A stretch of DNA of 57,148 nt, taken from positions 1 through 57,148 of the forward strand of contig JBAXIU010000001.1 in NCBI GenBank assembly GCA_037138215.1. The letters run 5' to 3'. The notes under the pieces are model-generated. The model was given only the letters and a program-made list of their open reading frames with translations. It had not been told where the DNA came from and searched no databases. The stretch comes from Candidatus Peregrinibacteria bacterium (lineage in GTDB: Bacteria > Patescibacteriota > Gracilibacteria > CAIRYL01). How positions within the stretch are numbered: position 1 is the first letter of the stretch; each line of letters starts with the position of its first letter. Below, piece after piece: positions 16,244 through 56,838 of the stretch. The translations under genes and the position numbers were made by a program.

Positions 16244-17149
16244 ATGGGAGAAGTTTTTATAAAAATGTTCCCCCTCATACTTCTTGCGCTTCTTGGTTTT
16301 TTGCTTCAAAAAGGAACAAAATCCATTGATATAGCGGTTCTTGGGAAGTTATCTCTGTATCTTCTTACACCCGCTACAATTTTTTTGGGAGCCTATAAAA
16401 CGCCTTTAGAATGGCAATATCTTATGGTACCTTTTTTGGTATTTACCATTACTGCGTTTAGTACGCTTCTTTTGGTATTTTTCCTACGGAAGTTGTTTCC
16501 ACAGAGCCCTTATACGGAGCCTGCATTTGTTTCTGCAACCGGTAATGTAGGGTATTTTGGACTTCCATTGGTGTTAGCTTTTTTTGGAGAATCCTCTCTT
16601 TCCCTCGCGGTTTTGGGAATGATGGGATTTACGCTTTCTGAAAGTACTATTGGGGCATTTATTATGGCAAGAGGTCATCATGGTGCCCAAAAAGCGTTCA
16701 TGACAGTTGTGAAACTTCCCAGTGTATGGCTTTTTTTAGTGGGAATAGGAATTCATATTTTAGGATTAAACTTACCTTCTTCGGTGCTTTTCACCATTGA
16801 ACAGCTTAAAACGACCTATATTACAATAGGAATGATTCTTATTGGTATAAGTTTTGCGGGTTTCCAAATGGACACGATTGATTGGAAACAAGTGATGAAA
16901 ATGATAACCGTAAAGCATTTTTGGCAACCTCTTTGGTTTTTCGTTCTTGTTCCGGTGTTTGCACTGTTTTTTACTTTCGATCCTCTTTTTCAAAAAATTC
17001 TTATTATTCAAAGTCTTTGCCCCATTGCAGGCAATATTATTATTTACGCGTCAGTTTTTCATCAAAAAATAAATGACATTGTGGTAGCCCTTTTGATTTC
17101 TACTATCCTCGCGTTTATAATTATTCCTGCATTTATGGTTTTGTTTTAG
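16244..17149 (+). CDS. Membrane transporter, AEC (auxin efflux carrier)-like
   Basis: 301 aa, about 10 hydrophobic helices in a 5+5 arrangement. Assigned from size and topology only. Confidence 0.45.
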   Translation: MGEVFIKMFPLILLALLGFLLQKGTKSIDIAVLGKLSLYLLTPATIFLGAYKTPLEWQYLMVPFLVFTITAFSTLLLVFFLRKLFPQSPYTEPAFVSATGNVGYFGLPLVLAFFGESSLSLAVLGMMGFTLSESTIGAFIMARGHHGAQKAFMTVVKLPSVWLFLVGIGIHILGLNLPSSVLFTIEQLKTTYITIGMILIGISFAGFQMDTIDWKQVMKMITVKHFWQPLWFFVLVPVFALFFTFDPLFQKILIIQSLCPIAGNIIIYASVFHQKINDIVVALLISTILAFIIIPAFMVLF

Positions 17150-19099: not shown

Positions 19100-19381
19100 T
19101 TATTCGTGACCTTCTTCGGCAGAATTATTTCCACTTAACAGCGCTTCAATTTGAGCTTTTGTTTTCTCTTCATTTGCATCAATAGGAACATTGAAAAAAG
19201 CTTCTGCTCTTCCAGTGCTTATTCCACCAAAGGTTACTCCTTCAATGGCATCATGAGTTATATGGGTTAGTTCTGATACCAAATTCGCTCCCAATCTCTC
19301 TGCTAAATCAGGAGAAATGGCAACTGAAATTTGTTTTGTAGTTTCTGCTGCCGCTGGAGTGTTGGACTTTTCGAATGCCAT
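19100..19381 (-). CDS. Small acidic hypothetical protein
   Basis: ORF with ATG at 19381 (MAFEKSNTPAAAE...). No recognisable motif. Confidence 0.35.
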   Translation of the reverse strand: MAFEKSNTPAAAETTKQISVAISPDLAERLGANLVSELTHITHDAIEGVTFGGISTGRAEAFFNVPIDANEEKTKAQIEALLSGNNSAEEGHE

Positions 19382-19467
19382 AAAAAAGAAAAAGGAATAC
19401 ACCATTCTTTCTTTCTTTCTTTTGTCAAATTTTTCTGTAAAAATCCATCTGGATTTTTTCTTTTTCT

Positions 19468-20346
19468 ATGTCTTCTTCCGATTTTCATGGCACCTTTACC
19501 GCACTGATTACTCCTTTTTTAGCCGATGAATCGGTGGACTTTGCATCTCTGGAAAAAATGATAGAAGACCAAATTGCCGCGGGTATTACGGGGTTGGTAA
19601 TGGTGGGAACAACAGGGGAAAGCCCCACGCTTACTTGGGACGAACATCAAACCGTTGTAAAATTTGCGGTCGATACCGCAAAAGGGCGCACAAAAATTAT
19701 TGCCGGAACGGGATCAAACGCAACGCATGAAGCAGTGGAACATTCCCAAATTGCGGAAAAAAATGGAGTAGATGCTCTTTTAGTGGTTTCGCCGTATTAT
19801 AATAAGCCTACGCAACAAGGGCTTTTTGAGTATTTCTCTACGGTTTGCCAGTCGGTTTCTATTCCCGTCATAGTATATAATATTCCTGGACGGTGTGGTG
19901 TAAATGTGGAAACAACAACCCTTTTGCGTATTGCACAGGCAAATAAAAACTGTGTGGGGGTAAAAGAGGCGAGTGGAAATATTGATCAAATGATGGAAGT
20001 CATTCGGACGATGCCCAAAAGTTTTACAGTCCTTTCTGGAGAAGAATATCTCACTTTTCCGCTTATGGCATTGGGAGGGCACGGGGTTATTTCGGTCCTT
20101 TCTAACGCGCTTCCGGTAGAAGTAAAAAAAATGGTGGATACTGCTCTGGCGGGGAACTTTGTTTTAGCCCGAGATCAGCATTTTGCGCTTCTTTCCCAAA
20201 TGAAGGCGTGTTTTATAGAAACTAATCCTCTTCCTATTAAAACGCTTCTTTCCGCAATGGGAAAATGCCAGGAGGTGTTTCGGTCTCCCTTATGCAAAAT
20301 GGGAGAAGGGAATAAAAAGAACCTTTTAGAGGCGTTTGGGAAATAG
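19468..20346 (+). CDS. dapA: 4-hydroxy-tetrahydrodipicolinate synthase
   Basis: FHGTFTALITPF, GTTGESPTL, VVSPYYNKPTQQGL, and a KEASGN lysine block are all DapA signatures. Confidence 0.9.
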   Translation: MSSSDFHGTFTALITPFLADESVDFASLEKMIEDQIAAGITGLVMVGTTGESPTLTWDEHQTVVKFAVDTAKGRTKIIAGTGSNATHEAVEHSQIAEKNGVDALLVVSPYYNKPTQQGLFEYFSTVCQSVSIPVIVYNIPGRCGVNVETTTLLRIAQANKNCVGVKEASGNIDQMMEVIRTMPKSFTVLSGEEYLTFPLMALGGHGVISVLSNALPVEVKKMVDTALAGNFVLARDQHFALLSQMKACFIETNPLPIKTLLSAMGKCQEVFRSPLCKMGEGNKKNLLEAFGK

Positions 20347-20359
20347 TTTGGGAAAAATA

Positions 20360-20397
20360 GACCCCGCGGGTTTTTCGGTCCATTAACCCGCGGGGTC
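20360..20397. repeat. 12-bp-stem GC-rich hairpin downstream of dapA
   Basis: gaccccgcgggt (20360-20371) and acccgcggggtc (20386-20397) are perfect reverse complements with a 14-nt loop. No U-tract after the stem. Confidence 0.8.
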
Positions 20398-20407
20398 GAA
20401 CAGGAGG

Positions 20408-20436
20408 TTGACAACCAAAAATGCTTCCCTTATATT
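20408..20436 (+). promoter_or_regulatory. Near-consensus sigma70 promoter
   Basis: TTGACA (20408-20413), exactly 17 nt, TATATT (20431-20436). Confidence 0.7.
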
Positions 20437-20452
20437 TTGCCAGCACTCTGGA

Positions 20453-20554
20453 ATGAGTAATTTTTTATCCATGAACTTCTTGAAGAAAACGATTTTTGGC
20501 GGAAAAGTTTGTACATGCTGCGTATGTTTTTGCCCGGAGGGCGGAATATCGTAG
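20453..20554 (+). CDS. 33-codon Cys-rich micro-ORF (candidate leader peptide or precursor peptide)
   Basis: ATG 20453 to TAG 20552-20554 gives MSNFLSMNFLKKTIFGGKVCTCCVCFCPEGGIS, with 5 Cys in 8 consecutive codons (20510-20533). It lies between the promoter and the terminator and is too short for the ORF track. Confidence 0.45.
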   Translation: MSNFLSMNFLKKTIFGGKVCTCCVCFCPEGGIS

Positions 20555-20591
20555 TTTTTCATTTCCCACAGTAAAAGAAAAATATACGAGA

Positions 20592-20619
20592 ATCTGCCCG
20601 ACCCGGGCAGATTTTTTTG
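20592..20619 (+). terminator. Intrinsic terminator (possible attenuator)
   Basis: atctgcccg (20592-20600) / cgggcagat (20604-20612) 9-bp stem followed by T7. The upstream segment tgcccgg (20531-20537) can compete for the right arm. Confidence 0.8.
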
Positions 20620-20648
20620 TTTATTTATTCTTTTACTTTTTACATTCT

Positions 20649-20759
20649 ATGTCCGAAATAATTCACCGAGGAGTTGCCTCTGTTGCACGCCAAACTCAAT
20701 TACAAAATAACGGAAAAAGACGGAGAAATGCCCCAGAAGGATGGCTTTTCGAGGAGTAA
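20649..20759 (+). CDS. 36-aa small ORF ending in FEE
   Basis: ATG 20649 sits in the same ttctATGTC context as many genes here and gives MSEIIHRGVASVARQTQLQNNGKRRRNAPEGWLFEE. It is the only part of tracked ORF 20496-20759 that lies downstream of the terminator. Confidence 0.3.
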   Translation: MSEIIHRGVASVARQTQLQNNGKRRRNAPEGWLFEE

Positions 20760-20810
20760 TATTCTCATATTCTTCCTTTCATCCAACAACAGGCAGCAGC
20801 TCTCCATTTT

Positions 20811-21452
20811 ATGCTTCCGGATGCTCAGCCCTCAGACGAACAGGAAATTTTAGAACGGTCTGGAGATACACAGGCTTTGATGAAATATCTTCGTCCACGG
20901 CTTCATCCGGCAACTCGGCATTACGCCGATTCTATTGCTCCTCTCGTGGAAAGGCTTAAAACCGTAAGAACTAAGGAAGAGTCCGGCGAAATAATACATG
21001 CGTTTAATGCCTATATGCTGCCCACACTCCAAAACAGCAGCGCTTTTCAGGAGGCGCAGGAACATTTCACCTACCGAAAACAGCCCATTGTCGCCATTCC
21101 TGTAGAAATACGAGGAAAAATCTCTTATCTCCAGTGGAATCTTTTACATTTCCCTGAAGGATTTACGACTCCTCCGCACGATCACCCTGGAGTCGCATCA
21201 GAAGCCGCTATTCATGGCTATGGTGAAGAAAGGTATTACAGTCCCACTCCAAAAAAGGATGATCATGGATCTGTACTTCACGAAAAAGTCGGGAATCGCA
21301 TTATTATGCCGGGAGCAATCGTAACGGTTTCTGCAGAAGATAATTCTCCCGAAGTACTGCGCCACACAATAGAAGCAATATACAAAGATCTCTTTCAATC
21401 TAATATTTATTTCGGAAAAGATCTGGAATGCGCACGGATACCCATCCAATAA
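20811..21452 (+). CDS. Cupin-fold protein resembling cysteine (thiol) dioxygenase type I
   Basis: FPEGFTTPPHDHPGVASEAAIHGYGEERYY parallels the CDO block (pG..TpiHDH.....vl.G.l.E..Y). A further His lies in VLRHTIEA. 213 aa. Confidence 0.45.
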   Translation: MLPDAQPSDEQEILERSGDTQALMKYLRPRLHPATRHYADSIAPLVERLKTVRTKEESGEIIHAFNAYMLPTLQNSSAFQEAQEHFTYRKQPIVAIPVEIRGKISYLQWNLLHFPEGFTTPPHDHPGVASEAAIHGYGEERYYSPTPKKDDHGSVLHEKVGNRIIMPGAIVTVSAEDNSPEVLRHTIEAIYKDLFQSNIYFGKDLECARIPIQ

Positions 21453-21491
21453 TCTTCTTCCCTTCCCTCTTTTTGTATTTTTTTATCTCCT

Positions 21492-22436
21492 ATGTCTGCT
21501 CCTCTCAAACCCATTGGCATTTACTATGAAAATGAAAAATGGCTGCTTCCTCTTTTTGCCGAACTAAAAAAACAAAATATCCCGTTTGAAAAACTATTTG
21601 CTCCCGATCATCTCTTTGTTCCTCATCACCGAGAAAGCCCATATTCCCTGGTGATAAACCGCATGAGTCCGTCGGCGCATAAAAGAAATGCGGGACATAC
21701 TATCCTCTATACGCTCCAATATCTTGCATATCTTAAAAGCATTGGAGCCAATTTTCTGAATGGTTATGAAACCTTCGTTTTAGAATCCTCAAAAGCCTAT
21801 CAGGCAAATATTTTTGAGGAACTCGACATAAAATATCCCAAAACCGTCGTGGTAAACGATATCCAAAATCTTGTCCGTGCTTCAGAGAAACTTCGCTTTC
21901 CCGTCCTCACAAAATCAAACATTGGGGGAAGTGGTGCAGGAATTCAAAAGTTTCATTCTCGAGACGATCTTCAAAAAGCGGTAGCAGATAAATCACTGGA
22001 AGTGAGTGTGGATAATATCATCTTGCTTCAAGAATACCTGACCCCAAAAGGTGGAACCATTGTGCGGGTAGAAGTGCTGAACGACGAATTTCTCTACGCC
22101 ATAAAAATAAATGTGCAGGGAGAATCCTTTAACCTTTGCCCAGCGGAAGATTGTGGTACGGAAGGTTCTGCGTGTACCATTGCCCGAAGCATTGCGGCGG
22201 AGAATTACCTTCCTCCTCTTGCAGTCATTGAAACCGTGAAAAAAATATTTCAGCACACTGGGATTGAAATAGGGGGCGTGGAATATCTCGTAAACGAAGA
22301 GGATGGGGAAATATACTATTACGATATTAACACCCTCTCCAATTTTGTAACAAATGCTACGGATGTAGTGGGATTTGATCCTTGGCAAAATTTTGTAGAA
22401 TATATTGTGCAGAAAGCGGAAGGTGGAAATTTCTAA
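21492..22436 (+). CDS. ATP-grasp ligase (RimK / glutathione-synthetase-like fold)
   Basis: FPVLTKSNIGGSGAGIQKF, ILLQEYL, and GGVEYLVNEEDGEIYYYDINTLSNF match ATP-grasp nucleotide and Mg-binding blocks. Confidence 0.7.
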   Translation: MSAPLKPIGIYYENEKWLLPLFAELKKQNIPFEKLFAPDHLFVPHHRESPYSLVINRMSPSAHKRNAGHTILYTLQYLAYLKSIGANFLNGYETFVLESSKAYQANIFEELDIKYPKTVVVNDIQNLVRASEKLRFPVLTKSNIGGSGAGIQKFHSRDDLQKAVADKSLEVSVDNIILLQEYLTPKGGTIVRVEVLNDEFLYAIKINVQGESFNLCPAEDCGTEGSACTIARSIAAENYLPPLAVIETVKKIFQHTGIEIGGVEYLVNEEDGEIYYYDINTLSNFVTNATDVVGFDPWQNFVEYIVQKAEGGNF

Positions 22437-22453
22437 ATCATCTCTCCTTTTTT

Positions 22454-23239
22454 ATGAAAAAAATCCTTGTTTTTCAACACGCTGGATACAAGCCCTACGG
22501 AACGCTCAATCCTCTTCTCAAAGAGAAAGGGCTTCGGCTGCGGTATGTAAATTTTGACCGCGATGCAGAGGCAAAACCGAGTATGGAGAAATACCACGGA
22601 TTGGTGGTTTTTGGGAGCGATAAGGGAGTGTATGAATCCCAAAAACACGAACATATTAAAACCGAAATGCAGGTCATTGAAGAGGCGTTGAAAAAGGGAG
22701 TTCCTATCCTGTGCATTTGTTTTGGTGCCCAAATGCTGGCAAGTGTATTGGGCGCCGAAGTGCGTAAAAGTCCGGTAAAAGAAATAGGATGGCATGATGT
22801 GCACCTCACTGAGGAAGGGCAAAAAGATGCGCTCCTCTCTCATTTTCAGAGTCCGGAAAAGGTTTTTCAGTACCATCGAGATACCTTTGATATTCCCCAA
22901 ACTGCCACGCATTTGGCGTATTCGGATGCGTTGCCAGCACAAGCATTTCGATATGGAGAACACGCTTATGGTCTGCAATTTCATTTAGAGGTGAATCCGC
23001 TCAATATTTCTCGGTGTCTTCAAAATGAAAAAAATAAGAATGAGATGCAAGAGATCCATGGAGAATCTTTTGAAGAAAAAATAAAAGCGCATACTCATCA
23101 GCATATTGCTCGTTCTATGGATTTAAGCCAAAAAACATTTTCCGCATTTATAGATTTATTTGGTTTCCAAAAATCCATTATTTTGGGGTCTGATCATGGT
23201 GGAAAAATAACCACTGGAGATGAATTTTTTCGCGTATAA
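22454..23239 (+). CDS. Class I glutamine amidotransferase-like protein (standalone GATase1 / peptidase C26 fold)
   Basis: PILCICFGAQMLA (nucleophile Cys elbow) and YGLQFHLE (His-Glu of the triad). Start at MKKILVFQH. Confidence 0.7.
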   Translation: MKKILVFQHAGYKPYGTLNPLLKEKGLRLRYVNFDRDAEAKPSMEKYHGLVVFGSDKGVYESQKHEHIKTEMQVIEEALKKGVPILCICFGAQMLASVLGAEVRKSPVKEIGWHDVHLTEEGQKDALLSHFQSPEKVFQYHRDTFDIPQTATHLAYSDALPAQAFRYGEHAYGLQFHLEVNPLNISRCLQNEKNKNEMQEIHGESFEEKIKAHTHQHIARSMDLSQKTFSAFIDLFGFQKSIILGSDHGGKITTGDEFFRV

Positions 23240-23366
23240 AAAAACGAGATAGGGGGTTTTGGGAGTATGAAAAATGAATTTTCTACTTTTTTTTAAAAAA
23301 CCCCTTGCACAGAGGTTTTGATTTCGATACTCTGCCCCAGCTTTATTTTTCTTCACGAGTACCCCA

Positions 23367-23636
23367 ATGAGCGGAACAGATGTTATAGAAGCCATAGGAG
23401 TTGTTGAAGAATGTCTTCCAAATGCAAGTTTTAAAGTGCTTTTGGATGATGAAATATTTGGAAAGGACTATCGTATTCATGCGACAGTTAGCGGAAAGAT
23501 TCGAAAGTTTCGGGTCCGCATTATCCCTGGAGATCGAGTGAGGGTAGAAATATCTCCTTATGATCTCACAAAAGGGCGCATTGTGTATCGGGAAAAGGAG
23601 CTTCCTCCTCAATCCCCTGTTGAGCAAGTTATTTAA
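23367..23636 (+). CDS. infA: Translation initiation factor IF-1 (with small insertion and C-terminal tail)
   Basis: [21 protein letters not shown]...[38 protein letters not shown] is the IF-1 S1-like domain. Confidence 0.9.
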
Positions 23637-23641
23637 TCACT

Positions 23642-23758
23642 ATGAAGGTTCGTTCGTCTGTTAAGCCAATCTGTCGGAATTGCAAGGTTATTCGAAGAAA
23701 GAGTGTTCTTCGAGTGGTTTGCTCAACCGATCCGCGTCATAAACAACGCCAAGGGTAA
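23642..23758 (+). CDS. rpmJ: 50S ribosomal protein L36
   Basis: Hand-translated to [38 protein letters not shown] (38 aa, CxxC...C...H zinc ribbon). Below the ORF-track length cutoff. Confidence 0.9.
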
Positions 23759-23772
23759 TTTTTTATTTTTAA

Positions 23773-24135
23773 ATGGCTCGTATTGCTGGTGTAAATCTGC
23801 CGAATAAGCGAATGGTAATCGCACTCACATATATTTATGGGGTGGGTCTTCCGAGGTCTCAGGAGGTTCTGAAAAAATTGGGAATATCTGAAGATGTTCG
23901 TGCGCACACTGTCTCAGAGGATGATGTTCAGCGCATCCGAAAAGAGCTTGAAAGTTTTTTAGTAGAGGGGGATCTTCGGCAAAAAGTAGCGGCAGATATT
24001 CGTCGTCTTCAAGATATTGCGTGTTATCGTGGGCGTCGTCATCGACTGGGCTTGCCTTGTAGAGGGCAGCAAACGAAAACGAATTGCCGCACGAAAAAGG
24101 GGAAAAAACGAACAGTGGCAAATAAGAAAAAATAG
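23773..24135 (+). CDS. rpsM: 30S ribosomal protein S13
   Basis: [25 protein letters not shown]... is the canonical S13 N-terminus. Position follows rpmJ. Confidence 0.95.
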
Positions 24136-28797: not shown

Positions 28798-30744
<1,947 letters not shown>

Positions 30745-37037: not shown

Positions 37038-37065
37038 GTAGAGACGCATTGCAATGCGTCTCTAC
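37038..37065. repeat. 28-bp perfect palindrome, REP family A copy 1
   Basis: gtagagacgcattgcaatgcgtctctac, with a lone half-site attgcgtctctac at 37088-37100. Confidence 0.9.
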
Positions 37066-37114
37066 AAAAAAATTCAAAATGGAGAATATTGCGTCTCTAC
37101 AAACCCACAAAAAA

Positions 37115-37138
37115 ACACCGCATTGCGGTGTTTTTTTG
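37115..37138 (+). terminator. Intrinsic terminator of groESL
   Basis: acaccgca / tgcggtgt stem followed by T7. Confidence 0.8.
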
Positions 37139-37200
37139 TGGGTGACAGAAAACGGGGAATGGGGGAAAATGTGGGTACCAAACATTTTTCAATAAAAATT

Positions 37201-37809
37201 ATGGAAGTACCATACGAAGAAAAACTGGAAAAAATTAATGATTTTATTAATAAAACACTAGAAGAAACCAGTTGTGTTATTGAGCAATTAAACGGGAAAA
37301 AATGTATGCGAACTTTGGCGTTGCTATCCTTTGCACATATGGAAGTTTTTGCAAGTTATTGGTGTCTTTATAAAGGGAAAAAAGAAGATCACGGAGATAA
37401 AATTAAGGACTGGATAAATACTTTTTTTCTCACAGAAAAAAACATTTACATGGAAGAATCTCCACACTACAAAAATATAACTGACATAGAATTATATAAA
37501 ATAAGATGTAATACTGTTCATTTTTTCTCTCCCCGTCTCCCTGATAAGTTTCTTCCTAAAAGAATAGGAATAACGGAAGATGAAAGAAGTATGAATCCCA
37601 ACGATGCTAAAAATATTTTTGATTTCGGAACTATTCTGATATCCAATAGATCTTTACTTCTCTTGATATTAGAGGGTGCAAAGCTCATGTTAAATGCCTT
37701 ATTAGATAATAGTGATCCCAATCATATTCCAGGAATAGAAAGAATTTATAAAAAAATCAATGAAGAAGGAGGTGAACAAATAAATATTGATAATCATGCC
37801 AATTCATAA
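37201..37809 (+). CDS. Hypothetical protein (202 aa) bracketed by identical REP palindromes
   Basis: ATG 37201 (MEVPYEEKLEK...). A/T-rich relative to neighbours. Its stop overlaps the RAYT start by 14 nt. No motif recognised. Confidence 0.5.
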   Translation: MEVPYEEKLEKINDFINKTLEETSCVIEQLNGKKCMRTLALLSFAHMEVFASYWCLYKGKKEDHGDKIKDWINTFFLTEKNIYMEESPHYKNITDIELYKIRCNTVHFFSPRLPDKFLPKRIGITEDERSMNPNDAKNIFDFGTILISNRSLLLLILEGAKLMLNALLDNSDPNHIPGIERIYKKINEEGGEQINIDNHANS

Positions 37810-38476
37810 TGGATTTCAAATTCAACCGGCCCCCAACCGTAGAGACGCATTGCAATGCGTCTCTACAACCGAACCATCCGAAAAATTCCAAAATAAATAC
37901 CGTATTCCCTCCGCCCGCCTAAAAAATTACGATTATGGCGAGGACGGCGCATATTTTGTAACCATTTGTACCAAAAATCGGGAACCGTTTTTTGGAGAAA
38001 TAAAAAACGGGAAAATGCAATTATCAAAAATAGGGAAAATTATTGAGGAGGAATGGCAAAAAACGGTAGAAATACGAAAAAATATCACACTGGGCGAATG
38101 GGTGGTAATGCCGAATCATGTACATGGGATTATTTTTATTAACGGGAACAGTGACGGGGAAGGGTGTAGAGACGCGATTCATCGCGTCTCTGTAAAAAAC
38201 ACAGATGCGATTCATCGCAACACAGACGCCATAAATGGCGTCTCTACAAATGGCGGCATTACAAAAAACAATAACCCTATGTTACACGAAAATTTATCAA
38301 CCATTATAAGATGGTATAAAGGGCGTACAACATTTGAAATACGAAAATTTAATCCTGATTTTTCCTGGCAACCCCGATTTCATGACCATATCATTCGTAA
38401 TGAAACGGAATTAACCAAAATTTCTGAATATATTTTTCATAATCCACAAAACTGGGTACAAGACGATTATTTTTGA
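37796..38476 (+). CDS. REP-associated tyrosine transposase (RAYT), IS200/IS605 Y1 (HUH) family
   Basis: YRIPSARLKNYDYGEDGAYFVTICTKNREPFFG, the HUH motif in MPNHVHGIIFI, and C-terminal WQPRFHDHIIRNE..L..I.EYI..NP. REP palindromes lie inside the ORF. Confidence 0.8.
   Translation: MPIHNGFQIQPAPNRRDALQCVSTTEPSEKFQNKYRIPSARLKNYDYGEDGAYFVTICTKNREPFFGEIKNGKMQLSKIGKIIEEEWQKTVEIRKNITLGEWVVMPNHVHGIIFINGNSDGEGCRDAIHRVSVKNTDAIHRNTDAINGVSTNGGITKNNNPMLHENLSTIIRWYKGRTTFEIRKFNPDFSWQPRFHDHIIRNETELTKISEYIFHNPQNWVQDDYF
37839..37866. repeat. 28-bp perfect palindrome, REP family A copy 2 (in RAYT codons 15-24)
   Basis: Identical to 37038-37065. Translated RRDALQCVST. Confidence 0.9.
38165..38247. repeat. Three family A-like palindromes inside the RAYT ORF
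   Basis: tgtagagacgcgattcatcgcgtctctgta (38165-38194), degenerate acagatgcgattcatcgcaacaca (38201-38224), and agacgccataaatggcgtctctac (38224-38247). They lie between the HUH motif and the C-terminal catalytic region. Confidence 0.85.
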
Positions 38477-39719: not shown

Positions 39720-40397
39720 ATGGCACTGGAAGATATGGTATTGGGCGGATCGGAAAGCGCAGGAGATGGCGGGAAAGAGGGGGGAAGTGAAGCGGCAAAA
39801 GAAGCCGCTGAGAAAGTACGAGAACAAAAAGCCAAAGCCGCCGCGCAGGCAAAGAGGGATCAACAAAACGAACGACGGAAAAAATCAGAGGATAATACCC
39901 TCGCACAAATTATTCTCCAGTTCCTCAAGAATCCTCGTTATTCTGGATTTTTTCTTCTCATTGCACGGGCCCTTTCTAAAAATATTCCTTCCGATTTTTT
40001 ACTCGCTATTTTAGCGCTTATTCATAAAGATTCAGCCCAAATTCTCCATGAGAAAAATATCCCCCGAAGAAATCCTCCAAAACCTCATTCTTCTGCCTTT
40101 CCTCCTGAGCTTTCTGCTCCATTGGCAGAATGGACTATTCTCATGTATTCGGTTTCTACGGCAGAGCCACACCGCGTATTGGAAACTATTCTGGATGAAA
40201 ATTGGGAATTGGATGCCAATACAGTACAACTCTGCGCCTTGGTCGTGCGAGAATTTTTCTTTTTTAAGAAATTCGAAACCCCCTTTCCTCATATTCAACA
40301 ATTCTCAGAAAATTTTCTCAAAACCCTCGCTACCGACTTGGAAAACCAAATTCAAAACCAGCAGATTTTAGAAACCGCGGAAGAGGATAATTTTTAG
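39720..40397 (+). CDS. Hypothetical protein with charged Lys/Glu/Ala-rich N-terminus
   Basis: 225-aa ORF. No motif recognised. Its stop overlaps the convergent purB stop by 4 nt. Confidence 0.45.
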   Translation: MALEDMVLGGSESAGDGGKEGGSEAAKEAAEKVREQKAKAAAQAKRDQQNERRKKSEDNTLAQIILQFLKNPRYSGFFLLIARALSKNIPSDFLLAILALIHKDSAQILHEKNIPRRNPPKPHSSAFPPELSAPLAEWTILMYSVSTAEPHRVLETILDENWELDANTVQLCALVVREFFFFKKFETPFPHIQQFSENFLKTLATDLENQIQNQQILETAEEDNF

Positions 40398-53682: not shown

Positions 53683-56600
53683 TTACGCATATTCCAAACT
53701 TCTCGCGTCTTTATAGTGTTCATAAACGAAATTATAGATTTCCATGCCTCTCAATTCACATTCCGTAGAGGTATATTGGGGCTCTGGAAGTTTTTGAAAT
53801 ACGAGTTGCGATATAAACTGTTTCACTCCTGATCGATTGCTATCAAAATCTCTCCAGTGGGGTACCAAAAGCGGTTTAAGATGGGTGAGGAGTTCATGGG
53901 AAGCCGATTTAATAGCACTCACTTCGTCGGGATTGAGATTTTCCTTTATCAAGAGGTCAAAAATGGCGAGTTCATACTCACTGAGTTTTTCTTTTACTGA
54001 TCGTTGTTGCTCGGTATTGAGATCTTTTGCGAGGAGCATGAGATCGTCAAAAAGCTTCTCCGTGTCATGTGCGCCGCTGTTATATTCTGCCAAGAGAGAC
54101 ATGAGCCGTTCCATAAATCGAGCGCGTTTTTTATTTTTGCGCACCATTTCCTCAATTTTTTTCTGGAGCTCTTCAGAGAGGGCTTCTACTTGTATATTTT
54201 TGTTTTCCAAATTTGCAAAAAAATCATGAAGGGCATCGGCATCAAGGCTACTGAGGTCTTTTACTTTTTTGTGCGGAGAAATAATATATTCTCCCGTTTG
54301 TATCGATCTATTGAGCAAATCTTCGAGATCTTTTTTTACCGGATCAATATCAACGCTTTCTAAACCAATAGTCCGAATACGAGTAGCAAGCACGCGTACC
54401 GCAAGTACTTCTTTGTAAAAATCTTCGGCGACAGGGTTGGGCAAAACGGATTGATAAGCACTTTGTACTGCACTGGCAAGGGTGAGAAACTGCTTTTTTT
54501 GAGATTGATTCCCAAGAATATTGTTGGCGTATTGCTCCAAAAGCAAAAGCACTTGCTCTTTGGGGCTGGTATACAGTGGCTCAATGGAAATATTTTCTGC
54601 TGTTAAAAAATCTTTTATCGTGGAAAGGCTTTTGCGAAGCTCGCTCACGAGTTCTTCTTTTTCTTGAATAATAGCATTCCCATTTTCTCCGGTGGAAGCG
54701 TACAGCGATAATGCGCGTTCGATATTCTTAAAAACGCCAATATAATCTACAATAAGCCCGTTCTTTTTCCCCTCATCTGCCACGCGGTTGGCGCGGGCAA
54801 TAGTTTGCATGAGAGTATGATTTTTGAGGGGTTTATCGAGGTACAGGGTAGAAAGGTTGGGAACATCAAAACCTGTAAGCCACATGGCACAAACAAACAC
54901 AATGCGAAGAGTAGTTTCGGGATCTTTAAATTCATCTTCGAGGGAAATGATTTTTCCATCTTTTGAAGTTTTTTTAAGAATTCGTTCGCGAATCGGAAGC
55001 ACATCAATTTCAAATTCTTTCATATCGGCGATTTCGTTTTGATTGTCACCCAGGCTCACCATAACTGCCATATCGACATTTTCGTGTTGTTCGAGTTTTT
55101 CCAGAATTTTTCCCTGTTCTCGCTCATCTTTGGTGCGTGACAAGTCCATGCGGAGTTTTGCCAAATAGCGATTCCATTCTTTTTGCACTTTGTCGTACAT
55201 GCGAAAAGTCGTTTTTTTGTCGATTGAAACCACCATGGCTTTTCCGTTGTATCCTCTTCCTACAAAATGCGTGACAATATCGCGCGCAATGGTGTTAAGA
55301 CGGTCTTCCCTCGTAATAATTTCATAAAAGGTCGAGAACTCTTGTTCGATCTTTTCTTCTTGTTCTTCGTTCATTTCGTAATGGTCCATAATTTGTCCCA
55401 TTTGCTCTTCTAAATTTTCGTTTACATTTTTAAGGCGGGGAACGCGATTTTCATAATACAGTGGCACCGTTGCTCCATCTTGTACCGAATCGCTAAAATT
55501 ATAAACAGAGACATATTTCCCGAAGGTTTTTTCTGTTTCTGGTTCTCCGTTTGCTAAAAGGGGAGTGCCCGTAAACCCGATAAACGACGCATTGGGTAAC
55601 GCTTTTCGCATATTAAGTGCCATGCGGTCGTATTGGGTTCGGTGGGCTTCGTCGGTCATAACGATGATATCTTCTCTTTCGGAAAGTGCGCCTGAAATAT
55701 CTTGAAATTTTTGGATGGTCGTAAAAATTTGGCGGTGGTCTTGGGAAAGGAGTTGTTTGAGATGATCAATACTATCCGCGTGTACTTCCGATTCTAAAAT
55801 GGCGCCCACTTGAACGAAATTTTTATAGGCTTGTTTATCGAGGTCTTTTCTATCGGTAACAATGACAAAGGTAAAGTTTCCCGGAAGTTTGCGGAGCACT
55901 TTTTGAGAAAGCCATACCATAGAATATGATTTTCCAGAGCCTTGCGTATGCCAAAAAACTCCTAATTTCCCTTCCAAAGTTTTTCGGTTTTTTACATTTT
56001 CAAAGGCACGGTTGACGCCCAAAAACTGAAAATACCGAGGCACGATTTTTTTGGGTTCGCTTCTCGATTCGTCAAACAAAATATAGTTCTCAAAAATATC
56101 CAAAAATCGGGTTTTATGGCATATTCCGTGCAGAATGGTAGAAAGGTCGGTTTTGGGTTCTTCGTCTTCGGTTGCAGATTTTTTCCACTCGTTAAAAAAC
56201 TCAAAAGGAGCCGTGAGCGAGCCAAATTTGCTTTCTATCCCATTGCTGATAATAATGCCCGCATTGTACCAAAACAGCTTTGGAATGGTGTCTTTGTAGT
56301 CACGAATATTATTGCGGTGCGCATCTATAAGGCTTTTGTGCGCTGCTTTCAGTTCTAAAAGTATAAGTGGGATACCGTTTACAAACAGCACAATATCGGG
56401 TCTTCTGGTATACATTTCGCCCACAATCCACAGTTGGGAAACCGCCAAAAAGGAATTGTTTTCGGGATGCTCAAAATCAAAAAATTGTGCCCGCTCGGTT
56501 TCGCTGTCGCCATTTTCTTGTGGAACATTCACCGGTACGCCGTTTTTTAGCAACCGGTAAATTTCTTGGTTTGCTTTTACCAGGCTCAGGTTTGATCGGT

Positions 56601-56838
56601 CACGGGTAATGGCTTCTATTGCTTGTTCAATGGCTTCTGGCGGAAGAGTAGGATTTATTTTTTGAAGTGCGGGCAACAAATATTTTTTCAGCACCACTTC
56701 GCCCCGATGCTCTCGCCCCAGTTTGGCGTCTTCCGCGTCGGAATAGGCATTTATATGGCACGCGTCATCGTTCCACACTTTTTTTAAGATGGAGAGAACG
56801 GTCTGCTCGACGAGGATGTCTTCTGAAAAGGGGTTCAT
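53683..56838 (-). CDS. hsdR: Type I restriction enzyme R subunit
   Basis: 1051 aa. N-terminal nuclease-like region, SF2 helicase motifs (HTQGSGKS, MTDEAHRTQ, FTGTP, QTIARANR), and a C-terminal helical domain. Confidence 0.9.
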   Translation of the reverse strand: MNPFSEDILVEQTVLSILKKVWNDDACHINAYSDAEDAKLGREHRGEVVLKKYLLPALQKINPTLPPEAIEQAIEAITRDRSNLSLVKANQEIYRLLKNGVPVNVPQENGDSETERAQFFDFEHPENNSFLAVSQLWIVGEMYTRRPDIVLFVNGIPLILLELKAAHKSLIDAHRNNIRDYKDTIPKLFWYNAGIIISNGIESKFGSLTAPFEFFNEWKKSATEDEEPKTDLSTILHGICHKTRFLDIFENYILFDESRSEPKKIVPRYFQFLGVNRAFENVKNRKTLEGKLGVFWHTQGSGKSYSMVWLSQKVLRKLPGNFTFVIVTDRKDLDKQAYKNFVQVGAILESEVHADSIDHLKQLLSQDHRQIFTTIQKFQDISGALSEREDIIVMTDEAHRTQYDRMALNMRKALPNASFIGFTGTPLLANGEPETEKTFGKYVSVYNFSDSVQDGATVPLYYENRVPRLKNVNENLEEQMGQIMDHYEMNEEQEEKIEQEFSTFYEIITREDRLNTIARDIVTHFVGRGYNGKAMVVSIDKKTTFRMYDKVQKEWNRYLAKLRMDLSRTKDEREQGKILEKLEQHENVDMAVMVSLGDNQNEIADMKEFEIDVLPIRERILKKTSKDGKIISLEDEFKDPETTLRIVFVCAMWLTGFDVPNLSTLYLDKPLKNHTLMQTIARANRVADEGKKNGLIVDYIGVFKNIERALSLYASTGENGNAIIQEKEELVSELRKSLSTIKDFLTAENISIEPLYTSPKEQVLLLLEQYANNILGNQSQKKQFLTLASAVQSAYQSVLPNPVAEDFYKEVLAVRVLATRIRTIGLESVDIDPVKKDLEDLLNRSIQTGEYIISPHKKVKDLSSLDADALHDFFANLENKNIQVEALSEELQKKIEEMVRKNKKRARFMERLMSLLAEYNSGAHDTEKLFDDLMLLAKDLNTEQQRSVKEKLSEYELAIFDLLIKENLNPDEVSAIKSASHELLTHLKPLLVPHWRDFDSNRSGVKQFISQLVFQKLPEPQYTSTECELRGMEIYNFVYEHYKDARSLEYA

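Follow-up and report, generated by a model that had tools for sequence, protein, structure and literature searches.

To our knowledge, cysteine-sensing leader attenuators have so far been described only in Actinobacteria, where they lack terminators. Polycysteine leaders were predicted there early on, likewise without terminators (Seliverstov et al., PMC1262725), and in mycobacteria polycysteine leader open reading frames (ORFs) were shown experimentally to turn on operons of cysteine metabolism when cysteine is scarce (Canestrari et al., bioRxiv 10.1101/834739). The mycobacterial leaders carry clustered Cys codons near the stop codon, they lie upstream of an operon and ribosome pausing is the proposed sensor; they are leaderless ORFs which act on translation by freeing the ribosome-binding site, and terminator hairpins were not found for them. 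Here we describe a leader that resembles them in the DNA of a bacterium of the candidate phyla radiation (CPR), a 57,148-nucleotide stretch (the window) from a contig of a Candidatus Peregrinibacteria metagenome-assembled genome. The leader precedes a cassette of four ORFs on the same strand, located between dapA and the infA ribosomal operon as a previous sequence-only reading of the window had indicated: a 36-amino acid ORF, an orphan cupin-like protein, an ATP-grasp ligase and a standalone class I amidotransferase (GATase1). The leader looks like a cysteine-sensing transcription attenuator, and the ligase belongs to a large family whose gene neighbourhoods in other phyla are rich in sulfur and cysteine functions; the cassette itself is confined to a single population, and its interpretation as a cysteine-responsive salvage operon is tentative.

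The polycysteine leader ORF (MNFLKKTIFGGKVCTCCVCFCPEGGIS, 27 amino acids) is found at positions 20471-20554 of the plus strand, with an alternative ATG at 20453 and a T-rich start context, and it has five Cys codons within eight codons, near its stop codon. The corresponding peptide segment, CTCCVCFC, is the densest Cys window of about 114,000 eight-codon windows in the six frames; Cys represents 0.6% of the proteome. Downstream, a terminator scan revealed an intrinsic terminator on the plus strand (20588-20620). Its hairpin (20588-20616) has a 13-bp stem with six GC pairs closed by a loop of 3 nt, and a T-run follows. It is the strongest of the region, its hairpin alone reaches -18.3 kcal/mol, and it ends 29 nt before the 36-amino acid ORF, so that any read-through transcript necessarily enters the cassette. 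Two antiterminator segments precede the terminator on the same strand: segment 1 (UUUGCCCGG, 20529-20537), which spans Phe-Cys-Pro-Glu codons, can pair with the terminator 3' arm, and segment 2 (GGGCGGA, 20539-20545) with its 5' arm. The minimum-energy fold of 20440-20630 has a free energy of -54.8 kcal/mol (z score -3.99) and contains both segments paired with the terminator arms. When folding is performed with a ribosome mask placed at the stop codon, segment 2 is covered and the terminator forms; with the mask stalled at the Cys codons, segment 2 is free and pairs with the terminator 5' arm once this is transcribed. The region hence combines in silico a short Cys-rich ORF, an intrinsic terminator and a mutually exclusive alternative pairing, and the leader looks like a transcription attenuator, which would respond to cysteine.

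A sigma-70-like promoter candidate (TTGACA, 17-nt spacer, TATATT; 11 of 12 matches) is located in front of the leader on the plus strand (20408-20436) and is the best match within 19300-23800; since promoter-like sites are not enriched over shuffled sequences, it is considered a candidate only. A perfect 13-bp inverted repeat (GACCCCGCGGGTT/AACCCGCGGGGTC, 12-nt spacer, 100% complementary; 20360-20397) immediately follows the dapA stop codon, with 10 nt separating it from the -35 hexamer; it has no U-tract and may represent either a variant of a terminator-like hairpin for dapA or an operator or regulator site. Rfam searches of the whole window, together with a permissive search of 20300-20900, returned sub-threshold chance matches only; that to Phe_leader scored 26.8 against a gathering score of 55 and is probably due to the terminator. 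With the mycobacterial leaders the window leader shares the clustered Cys codons near the stop codon, the location upstream of an operon and the pausing ribosome as the presumptive sensor. Differently from them, it is accompanied by a classical intrinsic terminator and an alternative pairing of the trp/his type, it belongs to a CPR host, and the genes downstream of it are not recognisable cysteine biosynthesis genes.

The ATP-grasp ligase (314 amino acids, MEI7510547.1, WCJ84_00120) is encoded at 21492-22436 of the plus strand. Its assignment, already proposed in the sequence-only reading, is borne out by matches to the Pfam models CPSase_L_D2, Dala_Dala_lig_C and RimK, by alignment and by structural modelling. 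The protein is a member of a large uncharacterised ATP-grasp family, with thousands of full-length relatives at about 50% identity; a genome scan found this family in at least 590 species, belonging to Chloroflexota, Nitrospinota, Bacteroidota, Acidobacteriota, Gemmatimonadota, Planctomycetota, Deinococcota and other phyla. The nearest relatives come from Chloroflexota and Nitrospinota (about 50% identity), and mean column identity in the family alignment is 67%. All the family-invariant ATP-grasp residues and the private motifs NRMSPSA..R and FNLCPA..C are present in the window ligase, whose active site is intact. When compared with the named NCBIfam families (RimK, LysX, CofF, MptN, Ddl and others), the ligase falls far below every cut-off, with 59.5 bits against 143.4 for TIGR00768 (RimK) and 47.6 bits against 275.6 for TIGR02144 (LysX). 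No close solved structure was found for it by sequence in the PDB, where glutathione synthase 7ta5 is among the distant matches (E 3e-5). An AlphaFold2 model of the ligase, with a predicted local distance difference test score (pLDDT) of 88.9, points to ArgX/LysX as the best PDB folds (E 1e-19, template modelling (TM) score 0.78/0.86), with PsnB, D-Ala-D-Ala ligases and RimK next in rank; the structural similarity to PsnB and to AMdnB is lower than that to LysX. The ATP-grasp fold is common to the ligase, LysX/ArgX and RimK, a group that includes its best structural matches (3vpb, 3vpd and 5k2m, TM 0.75-0.86) with RimK not far behind, and to which the ligase also has a weak profile similarity along its full length. 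However, it is only 16-20% identical to these enzymes, and its family has its own invariant motifs and its own partners, namely an SfnG-like monooxygenase and sulfur-assimilation genes; moreover, the window contains neither a zinc-ribbon carrier of the LysW type nor the lysZ/Y/J/K genes that go with LysX/ArgX. The rpsF gene, encoding the RimK substrate S6, which ends in Glu-Glu, is not present in the window either.

Gene neighbourhoods of the ligase family were analysed in 80 loci, extending up to 8 kb on each side where the contig permits. A neighbour-joining tree separates the family in two clades. In the larger one, a highly conserved SfnG/SsuD-like LLM flavin monooxygenase is encoded directly downstream, often with overlapping stop and start codons, and it adjoins the 3' end of the ligase gene in 56 of the 71 loci with room for it. 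This monooxygenase reaches 249 bits on TIGR04021, whose cut-off is 383, and 188 bits on the SsuD model, and the pair occurs in Bacteroidota, Acidobacteriota, Gemmatimonadota, Planctomycetota and one Saccharimonadales bin; the two-gene unit is seen within loci L016-L085 of our set, as in L056:1774-3754. We found no paper on the ligase family or on this pairing. The window ligase branches as sister to the second clade, with members from Chloroflexota, Nitrospinota and Trueperaceae, where the SfnG-like partner is absent, and no LLM monooxygenase gene is found in the 57-kb window. In this partner-less clade the immediate same-strand neighbours of the ligase include CbiX, cysteine synthase and rhodanese. 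Five loci, of which three are named as Nitrospinota/Nitrospinaceae, have a cobA-sulfite reductase-cbiX-ligase-eamA operon, in which siroheme genes go along with sulfite reductase; this arrangement, with eamA not always included, is seen at L002:2882-6975, L168:1874-6923, L009/L010:4857-9900 and L013, and the ligase start overlaps the cbiX stop. In L012 a cysteine synthase gene (cysKM, 362 bits against a cut-off of 344) lies 11 nt upstream of the ligase, and in two Chloroflexota loci (L014, L015) a two-domain rhodanese like 3-mercaptopyruvate sulfurtransferase is encoded upstream of it. These contexts are mutually independent and all belong to sulfur or cysteine assimilation. As a separate observation, one further locus (L001:8406-8618, minus strand) encodes a 70-amino acid zinc-ribbon protein that resembles LysW and has a long acidic tail of poly-Asp/Tyr, two genes away from a ligase homologue 51% identical to the window ligase; this isolated case is of interest for the carrier-protein hypothesis considered below.

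The last gene of the cassette, at 22454-23239 of the plus strand, encodes a standalone class I GATase, or C26-type hydrolase, of 261 amino acids (MEI7510548.1); its start was set by alignment with homologues. Also in this case the original family call was confirmed, with PF00117 at 68 bits against a cut-off of 22.8 and TM1158 (1o1y) matching at E 1e-34, and the triad Cys89, His177 and Glu179 is invariant in an alignment of 30 relatives. The protein is also PRK07053-like, at a score under the cut-off of that model, and shows weak Peptidase_C26 matches. Its closest relatives, about 60% identical, are from Bacteriovorax/Bdellovibrionales. The GATase1 fold, the Cys-His-Glu triad and the lack of a fused synthase domain are features in common with TM1158, GGP1 and PuuD/SpuA. 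The TM1158 group has no assigned substrate, and the closest relatives of the window GATase are solitary genes with variable neighbours; indeed, no conserved neighbour of any kind was found for it in 80 metagenomic GATase loci (489 kb in total) or in individually inspected neighbourhoods. The plant gamma-glutamyl peptidase GGP1, which cleaves glutathione (PMC12958103), matches the window protein at E 3e-8, and this homology, together with the weak Peptidase_C26 matches, suggests that the GATase may act on gamma-glutamyl amides.

The second ORF of the cassette (20811-21452, plus strand) encodes an orphan protein of 213 amino acids (MEI7510546.1, WCJ84_00115), with a helical N-terminal part predicted and cupin motif 1 in its C-terminal part. 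A word-indexed search (5.8 billion clustered proteins) and an exhaustive HMMER search (1.84 billion representatives) both retrieved nothing but the protein itself, and no match was obtained in Pfam, NCBIfam, PHROG and PADLOC, even at E 10. The full cupin signature consists of G-x5-H-x-H-x3,4-E-x6-G followed by G-x5-P-x-G-x2-H-x3-N, on a beta-barrel. In the orphan, residues 117-138 read G-FTTPP-H-D-H-PGVAS-E-AAIHGY-G (G-x5-H-D-H-x5-E-x6-G, with H123, H125 and E131), which is the classical motif 1 with one extra residue in the spacer, now of five residues; 22 residues past motif 1, at residue 161, a partial motif 2 is present (G-NRIIM-P-G, or G-x5-P-G). Motif 1 appeared in 0.045% of composition-preserving shuffles of the orphan and both motifs in 5e-6 of them, and none of 3,938 control ORFs contained the cupin motif. 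Since motif 1 and the partial motif 2 are so unlikely to occur together by chance, the orphan is a probable, very divergent cupin. A single-sequence AlphaFold2 model (pLDDT 37.8) is unusable, and its Foldseek matches (E >0.1, TM <0.3) are meaningless. The codon score of the ORF is positive in its own frame only. The more specific suggestion that this protein is like cysteine dioxygenase (CDO) did not hold, while the cupin part of that proposal finds some support in the motif statistics. Cysteine dioxygenases have a three-His site and have lost the motif-1 Glu, which the orphan retains; moreover, no CDO, ADO or PCO chains are among its PDB sequence matches (E up to 10). The likeness of the orphan to cupins lies in motif 1 and the Gly-x5-Pro-Gly block; it has no profile or PDB sequence match to any cupin family.

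The evidence that the 36-amino acid ORF (MSEIIHRGVASVARQTQLQNNGKRRRNAPEGWLFEE, ending in ...EGWLFEE), present at 20649-20759 of the plus strand in the ORF list, is a gene is weak; it may be the first cistron or merely part of the 5' untranslated region. Genome-wide, gene starts are preceded by T/C-rich tracts and not by a Shine-Dalgarno-like purine motif, and all four cassette ORFs conform to this habit, as the sequence-only reading had remarked for the small one. The T/C-rich tract is indeed there, although it is also the T-run of the terminator, and given this habit any ATG located 3' of a terminator U-tract would appear to have a good start context. The codon score of this ORF is 0.232, to be compared with -0.08 +/- 0.19 for spurious ORFs, 5.5% of which reach this value at similar size, and with 0.37 +/- 0.16 for true-frame windows, giving a likelihood of about 3:1 towards coding. 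The ORF is not annotated as a gene in public records, it has no Cys pairs, no zinc ribbon and no Pfam match, and no homologues were found in the 160 ligase and GATase loci fetched. In the 80 ligase loci, 79 homologous ligase genes could be located; of the 225 small ORFs found upstream of these on the same strand, none ends in two acidic residues. A structured RNA in place of the ORF was also considered and rejected, as 20621-20815 is not unusually stable (z score -0.81).

The gaps between the four ORFs are, from 5' to 3', 51, 39 and 17 nt, and no internal plus-strand terminator was detected in the cassette, except for a weak 5-bp match inside the orphan ORF (20915-20929); no convincing promoter was seen inside it. 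The G+C content of the three long ORFs, overall and at third codon positions, is host-like. Between the GATase gene and infA, a long hairpin (GGGGGUUUU...AAAAACCCC, 23250-23308) with A/T runs on both sides possibly delimits the cassette transcript at its 3' side, or may be a bidirectional terminator-like element dividing the cassette from the ribosomal operon; its fold is not significant against shuffles (z score -0.44) and it was not flagged by the terminator scan. A further feature of this region is the GC skew, which is positive in the plus-strand genes on either side but drops to -0.16 in 21001-22000, an interval running from the 3' part of the orphan ORF through the first half of the ligase gene; this drop may be a trace of foreign origin. 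A phage or defence origin of the cassette was rejected on the basis of PHROG and PADLOC searches.

The sequence-only reading had treated the three enzymes as partners, and their linkage elsewhere was surveyed in both sets of loci. No homologue of the GATase, of the orphan or of the 36-amino acid ORF was found by BLAST in the 80 ligase loci, where a GATase hidden Markov model (HMM) gave one weak, distant and unrelated GATase-like match; conversely, the ligase-family HMM found nothing in the 80 GATase loci. Eleven individually inspected neighbourhoods concur that the linkage of the trio is not conserved, and the expectation of recurrent co-occurrence was largely contradicted. Exact look-ups of infA and rpmJ gave either no record or contigs 100% identical to the window; the other contigs carrying this infA therefore belong to the same population. 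The cassette is not a dedicated pathway in the sense of a conserved system.

The best explanation, to which we give somewhat less than an even chance, is that the cassette represents a lineage-specific, cysteine-responsive operon for sulfur or gamma-glutamyl salvage. The ORFs with their families and intact active sites, the anatomy of leader and terminator, the sulfur genes around the ligase family and the missing linkage of the trio elsewhere are observed; the regulation of the unit, its substrates and the functional coupling of its three proteins are what we infer. According to this proposal, a single transcription unit would have been inserted between dapA and the infA ribosomal operon, and transcription would proceed from the sigma-70-like promoter through the ORF with five Cys in eight codons. 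With plentiful Cys-tRNA, the ribosome would reach the stop codon and cover segment 2, the 13-bp terminator would form and transcription would stop; with the ribosome stalled at the Cys codons, segment 2 would pair with the terminator 5' arm and allow read-through. This would lead to expression of possibly the 36-amino acid peptide, and then of a metal-binding cupin-like protein, the ligase and the hydrolase. Most probably, a gamma-glutamyl-type amide would be formed by the ligase and cleaved by the hydrolase on a small metabolite containing sulfur, which the cupin may oxidise, and the unit would raise cysteine supply under cysteine starvation. A comparable logic is known from the Puu pathway (PuuA, oxidation steps, PuuD), where gamma-glutamyl ligation, oxidation and hydrolysis follow each other, and it would fit the trio. 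However, the Puu ligase is glutamine-synthetase-like and not an ATP-grasp enzyme, and neither an amine oxidase nor an aldehyde dehydrogenase is found here, thus the likeness is conceptual only. The link with thiols or sulfur proposed in the earlier reading gains independent support from the ligase-family neighbours in other phyla and from the polycysteine leader with its terminator.

Several observations weigh against the salvage operon. Equilibrium folding with a stalled ribosome still favours the terminator, so that antitermination could only be a kinetic effect, as in classical attenuators. No further sulfur genes were found in the 57-kb window, the rationale for an ATP-consuming ligase during cysteine starvation is not obvious, and the orphan has a low codon score (0.19, to be compared with 0.37 +/- 0.07 in 24 host genes). 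The cassette is restricted to one population; the ligase and the GATase are never neighbours in the 160 loci; and their nearest relatives come from different phyla, so the two enzymes may be functionally unrelated. These last points, together with the absence of conserved neighbours for the GATase, also argue for a chance juxtaposition, in which the orphan and two separately acquired, unrelated enzymes happen to share the gap between dapA and infA with no common pathway, while the polycysteine ORF with its terminator would be a small gene of its own or coincidental. In CPR genomes unrelated genes are tightly packed, which is in line with such an origin. Conversely, the gaps of 17-51 nt with no convincing internal promoter or terminator, the necessary entry of read-through transcripts into the cassette and the independent agreement of the Cys-rich leader with the sulfur genes that surround the ligase family argue against it; we consider chance juxtaposition somewhat less likely than the salvage operon, and a serious possibility.

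Other explanations assign a more specific role to the ligase. According to one of them, a form of the peptide tailoring advanced in the sequence-only reading, the ligase would modify the Glu-Glu end of the 36-amino acid peptide, much as RimK does with S6 or LysX/ArgX with the carrier protein LysW, the cupin would modify the peptide or the tethered group and the GATase would remove the added gamma-glutamyl or amino-acid unit. The C-terminus of LysW is EDWGE, which the ...EGWLFEE end loosely recalls; LysX/ArgX and RimK ligate onto a C-terminal Glu of a protein, and the predicted fold of the ligase is nearest to theirs, with ArgX/LysX as top matches ahead of PsnB, Ddl and RimK. Moreover, the small ORF is the first of the operon, has the local start context and a mildly positive codon score. 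However, comparative support is lacking: the ligase remains far below the RimK and LysX cut-offs, its family is conserved across phyla at 45-50% identity and is partnered with metabolic enzymes rather than peptides, acidic-ended small ORFs do not recur upstream of its relatives, and the 36-amino acid ORF has no zinc ribbon, homologues or annotation, its start context being also the terminator T-run. Differently from graspetide clusters of the microviridin/plesiocin type, whose precursors have a conserved leader and a core of Thr/Ser/Lys plus Asp/Glu, no precursor co-occurs with the ligase, as neither small ORF has a homologue in the 160 loci. Peptide tailoring is thus unlikely. A low-molecular-weight thiol is an even less probable product. 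In this case, the ligase would make a Cys-containing thiol, either gamma-glutamyl or a dipeptide, as glutathione synthetase does, the GATase would recycle it and the cupin would be a thiol dioxygenase. GshB-type enzymes are ATP-grasp ligases, the 7ta5 match would agree with this role, and cysteine synthase and sulfite reductase genes adjoin members of the ligase family; GATase1 enzymes of the GGP1 type hydrolyse glutathione (PMC12958103). Against this, an attenuator induced by starvation is ill-suited to a cysteine-consuming pathway, the cupin retains the canonical Glu and gives no CDO, ADO or PCO signal, and the SfnG-like partner found in most genomes suggests sulfur scavenging and not thiol synthesis. 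Finally, the 36-amino acid peptide might be a minimal carrier or substrate free of a zinc ribbon, on whose C-terminal Glu the LysX-like ligase would build up or tether a sulfur-containing amino acid, to be oxidised by the cupin and released by the GATase. We regard this carrier hypothesis as very improbable; if true, it would imply a cysteine-regulated, carrier-dependent salvage pathway in a CPR bacterium, and would hint that the whole family of at least 590 species handles carrier-bound sulfur intermediates.

As the cassette is found in a single population, it has little generality as a system. The ligase family has a wider relevance, since its function is unassigned and its sulfur and cysteine wiring provides a concrete, testable hypothesis. 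If the leader works as predicted, cysteine-sensing leader peptides would extend beyond Actinobacteria, in a terminator/antiterminator form, and an organism with a reduced genome would actively regulate cysteine salvage.

Upstream of the cassette, dapA occupies 19468-20346 (TIGR00674, 344 bits), and downstream the ribosomal operon infA-rpmJ-rpsM-rpsK-rpsD-rpoA-rplQ starts from 23367; the rest of the window contains ordinary housekeeping genes. Long ORFs with no Pfam match are found at 16244-17149, 28798-30744, 37054-37809 and 39720-40397. A 229-amino acid ORF at 37787-38476 contains a weak transposase domain of the IS200-like Y1 type, and 53683-56838 encodes a type I restriction R subunit of full length.

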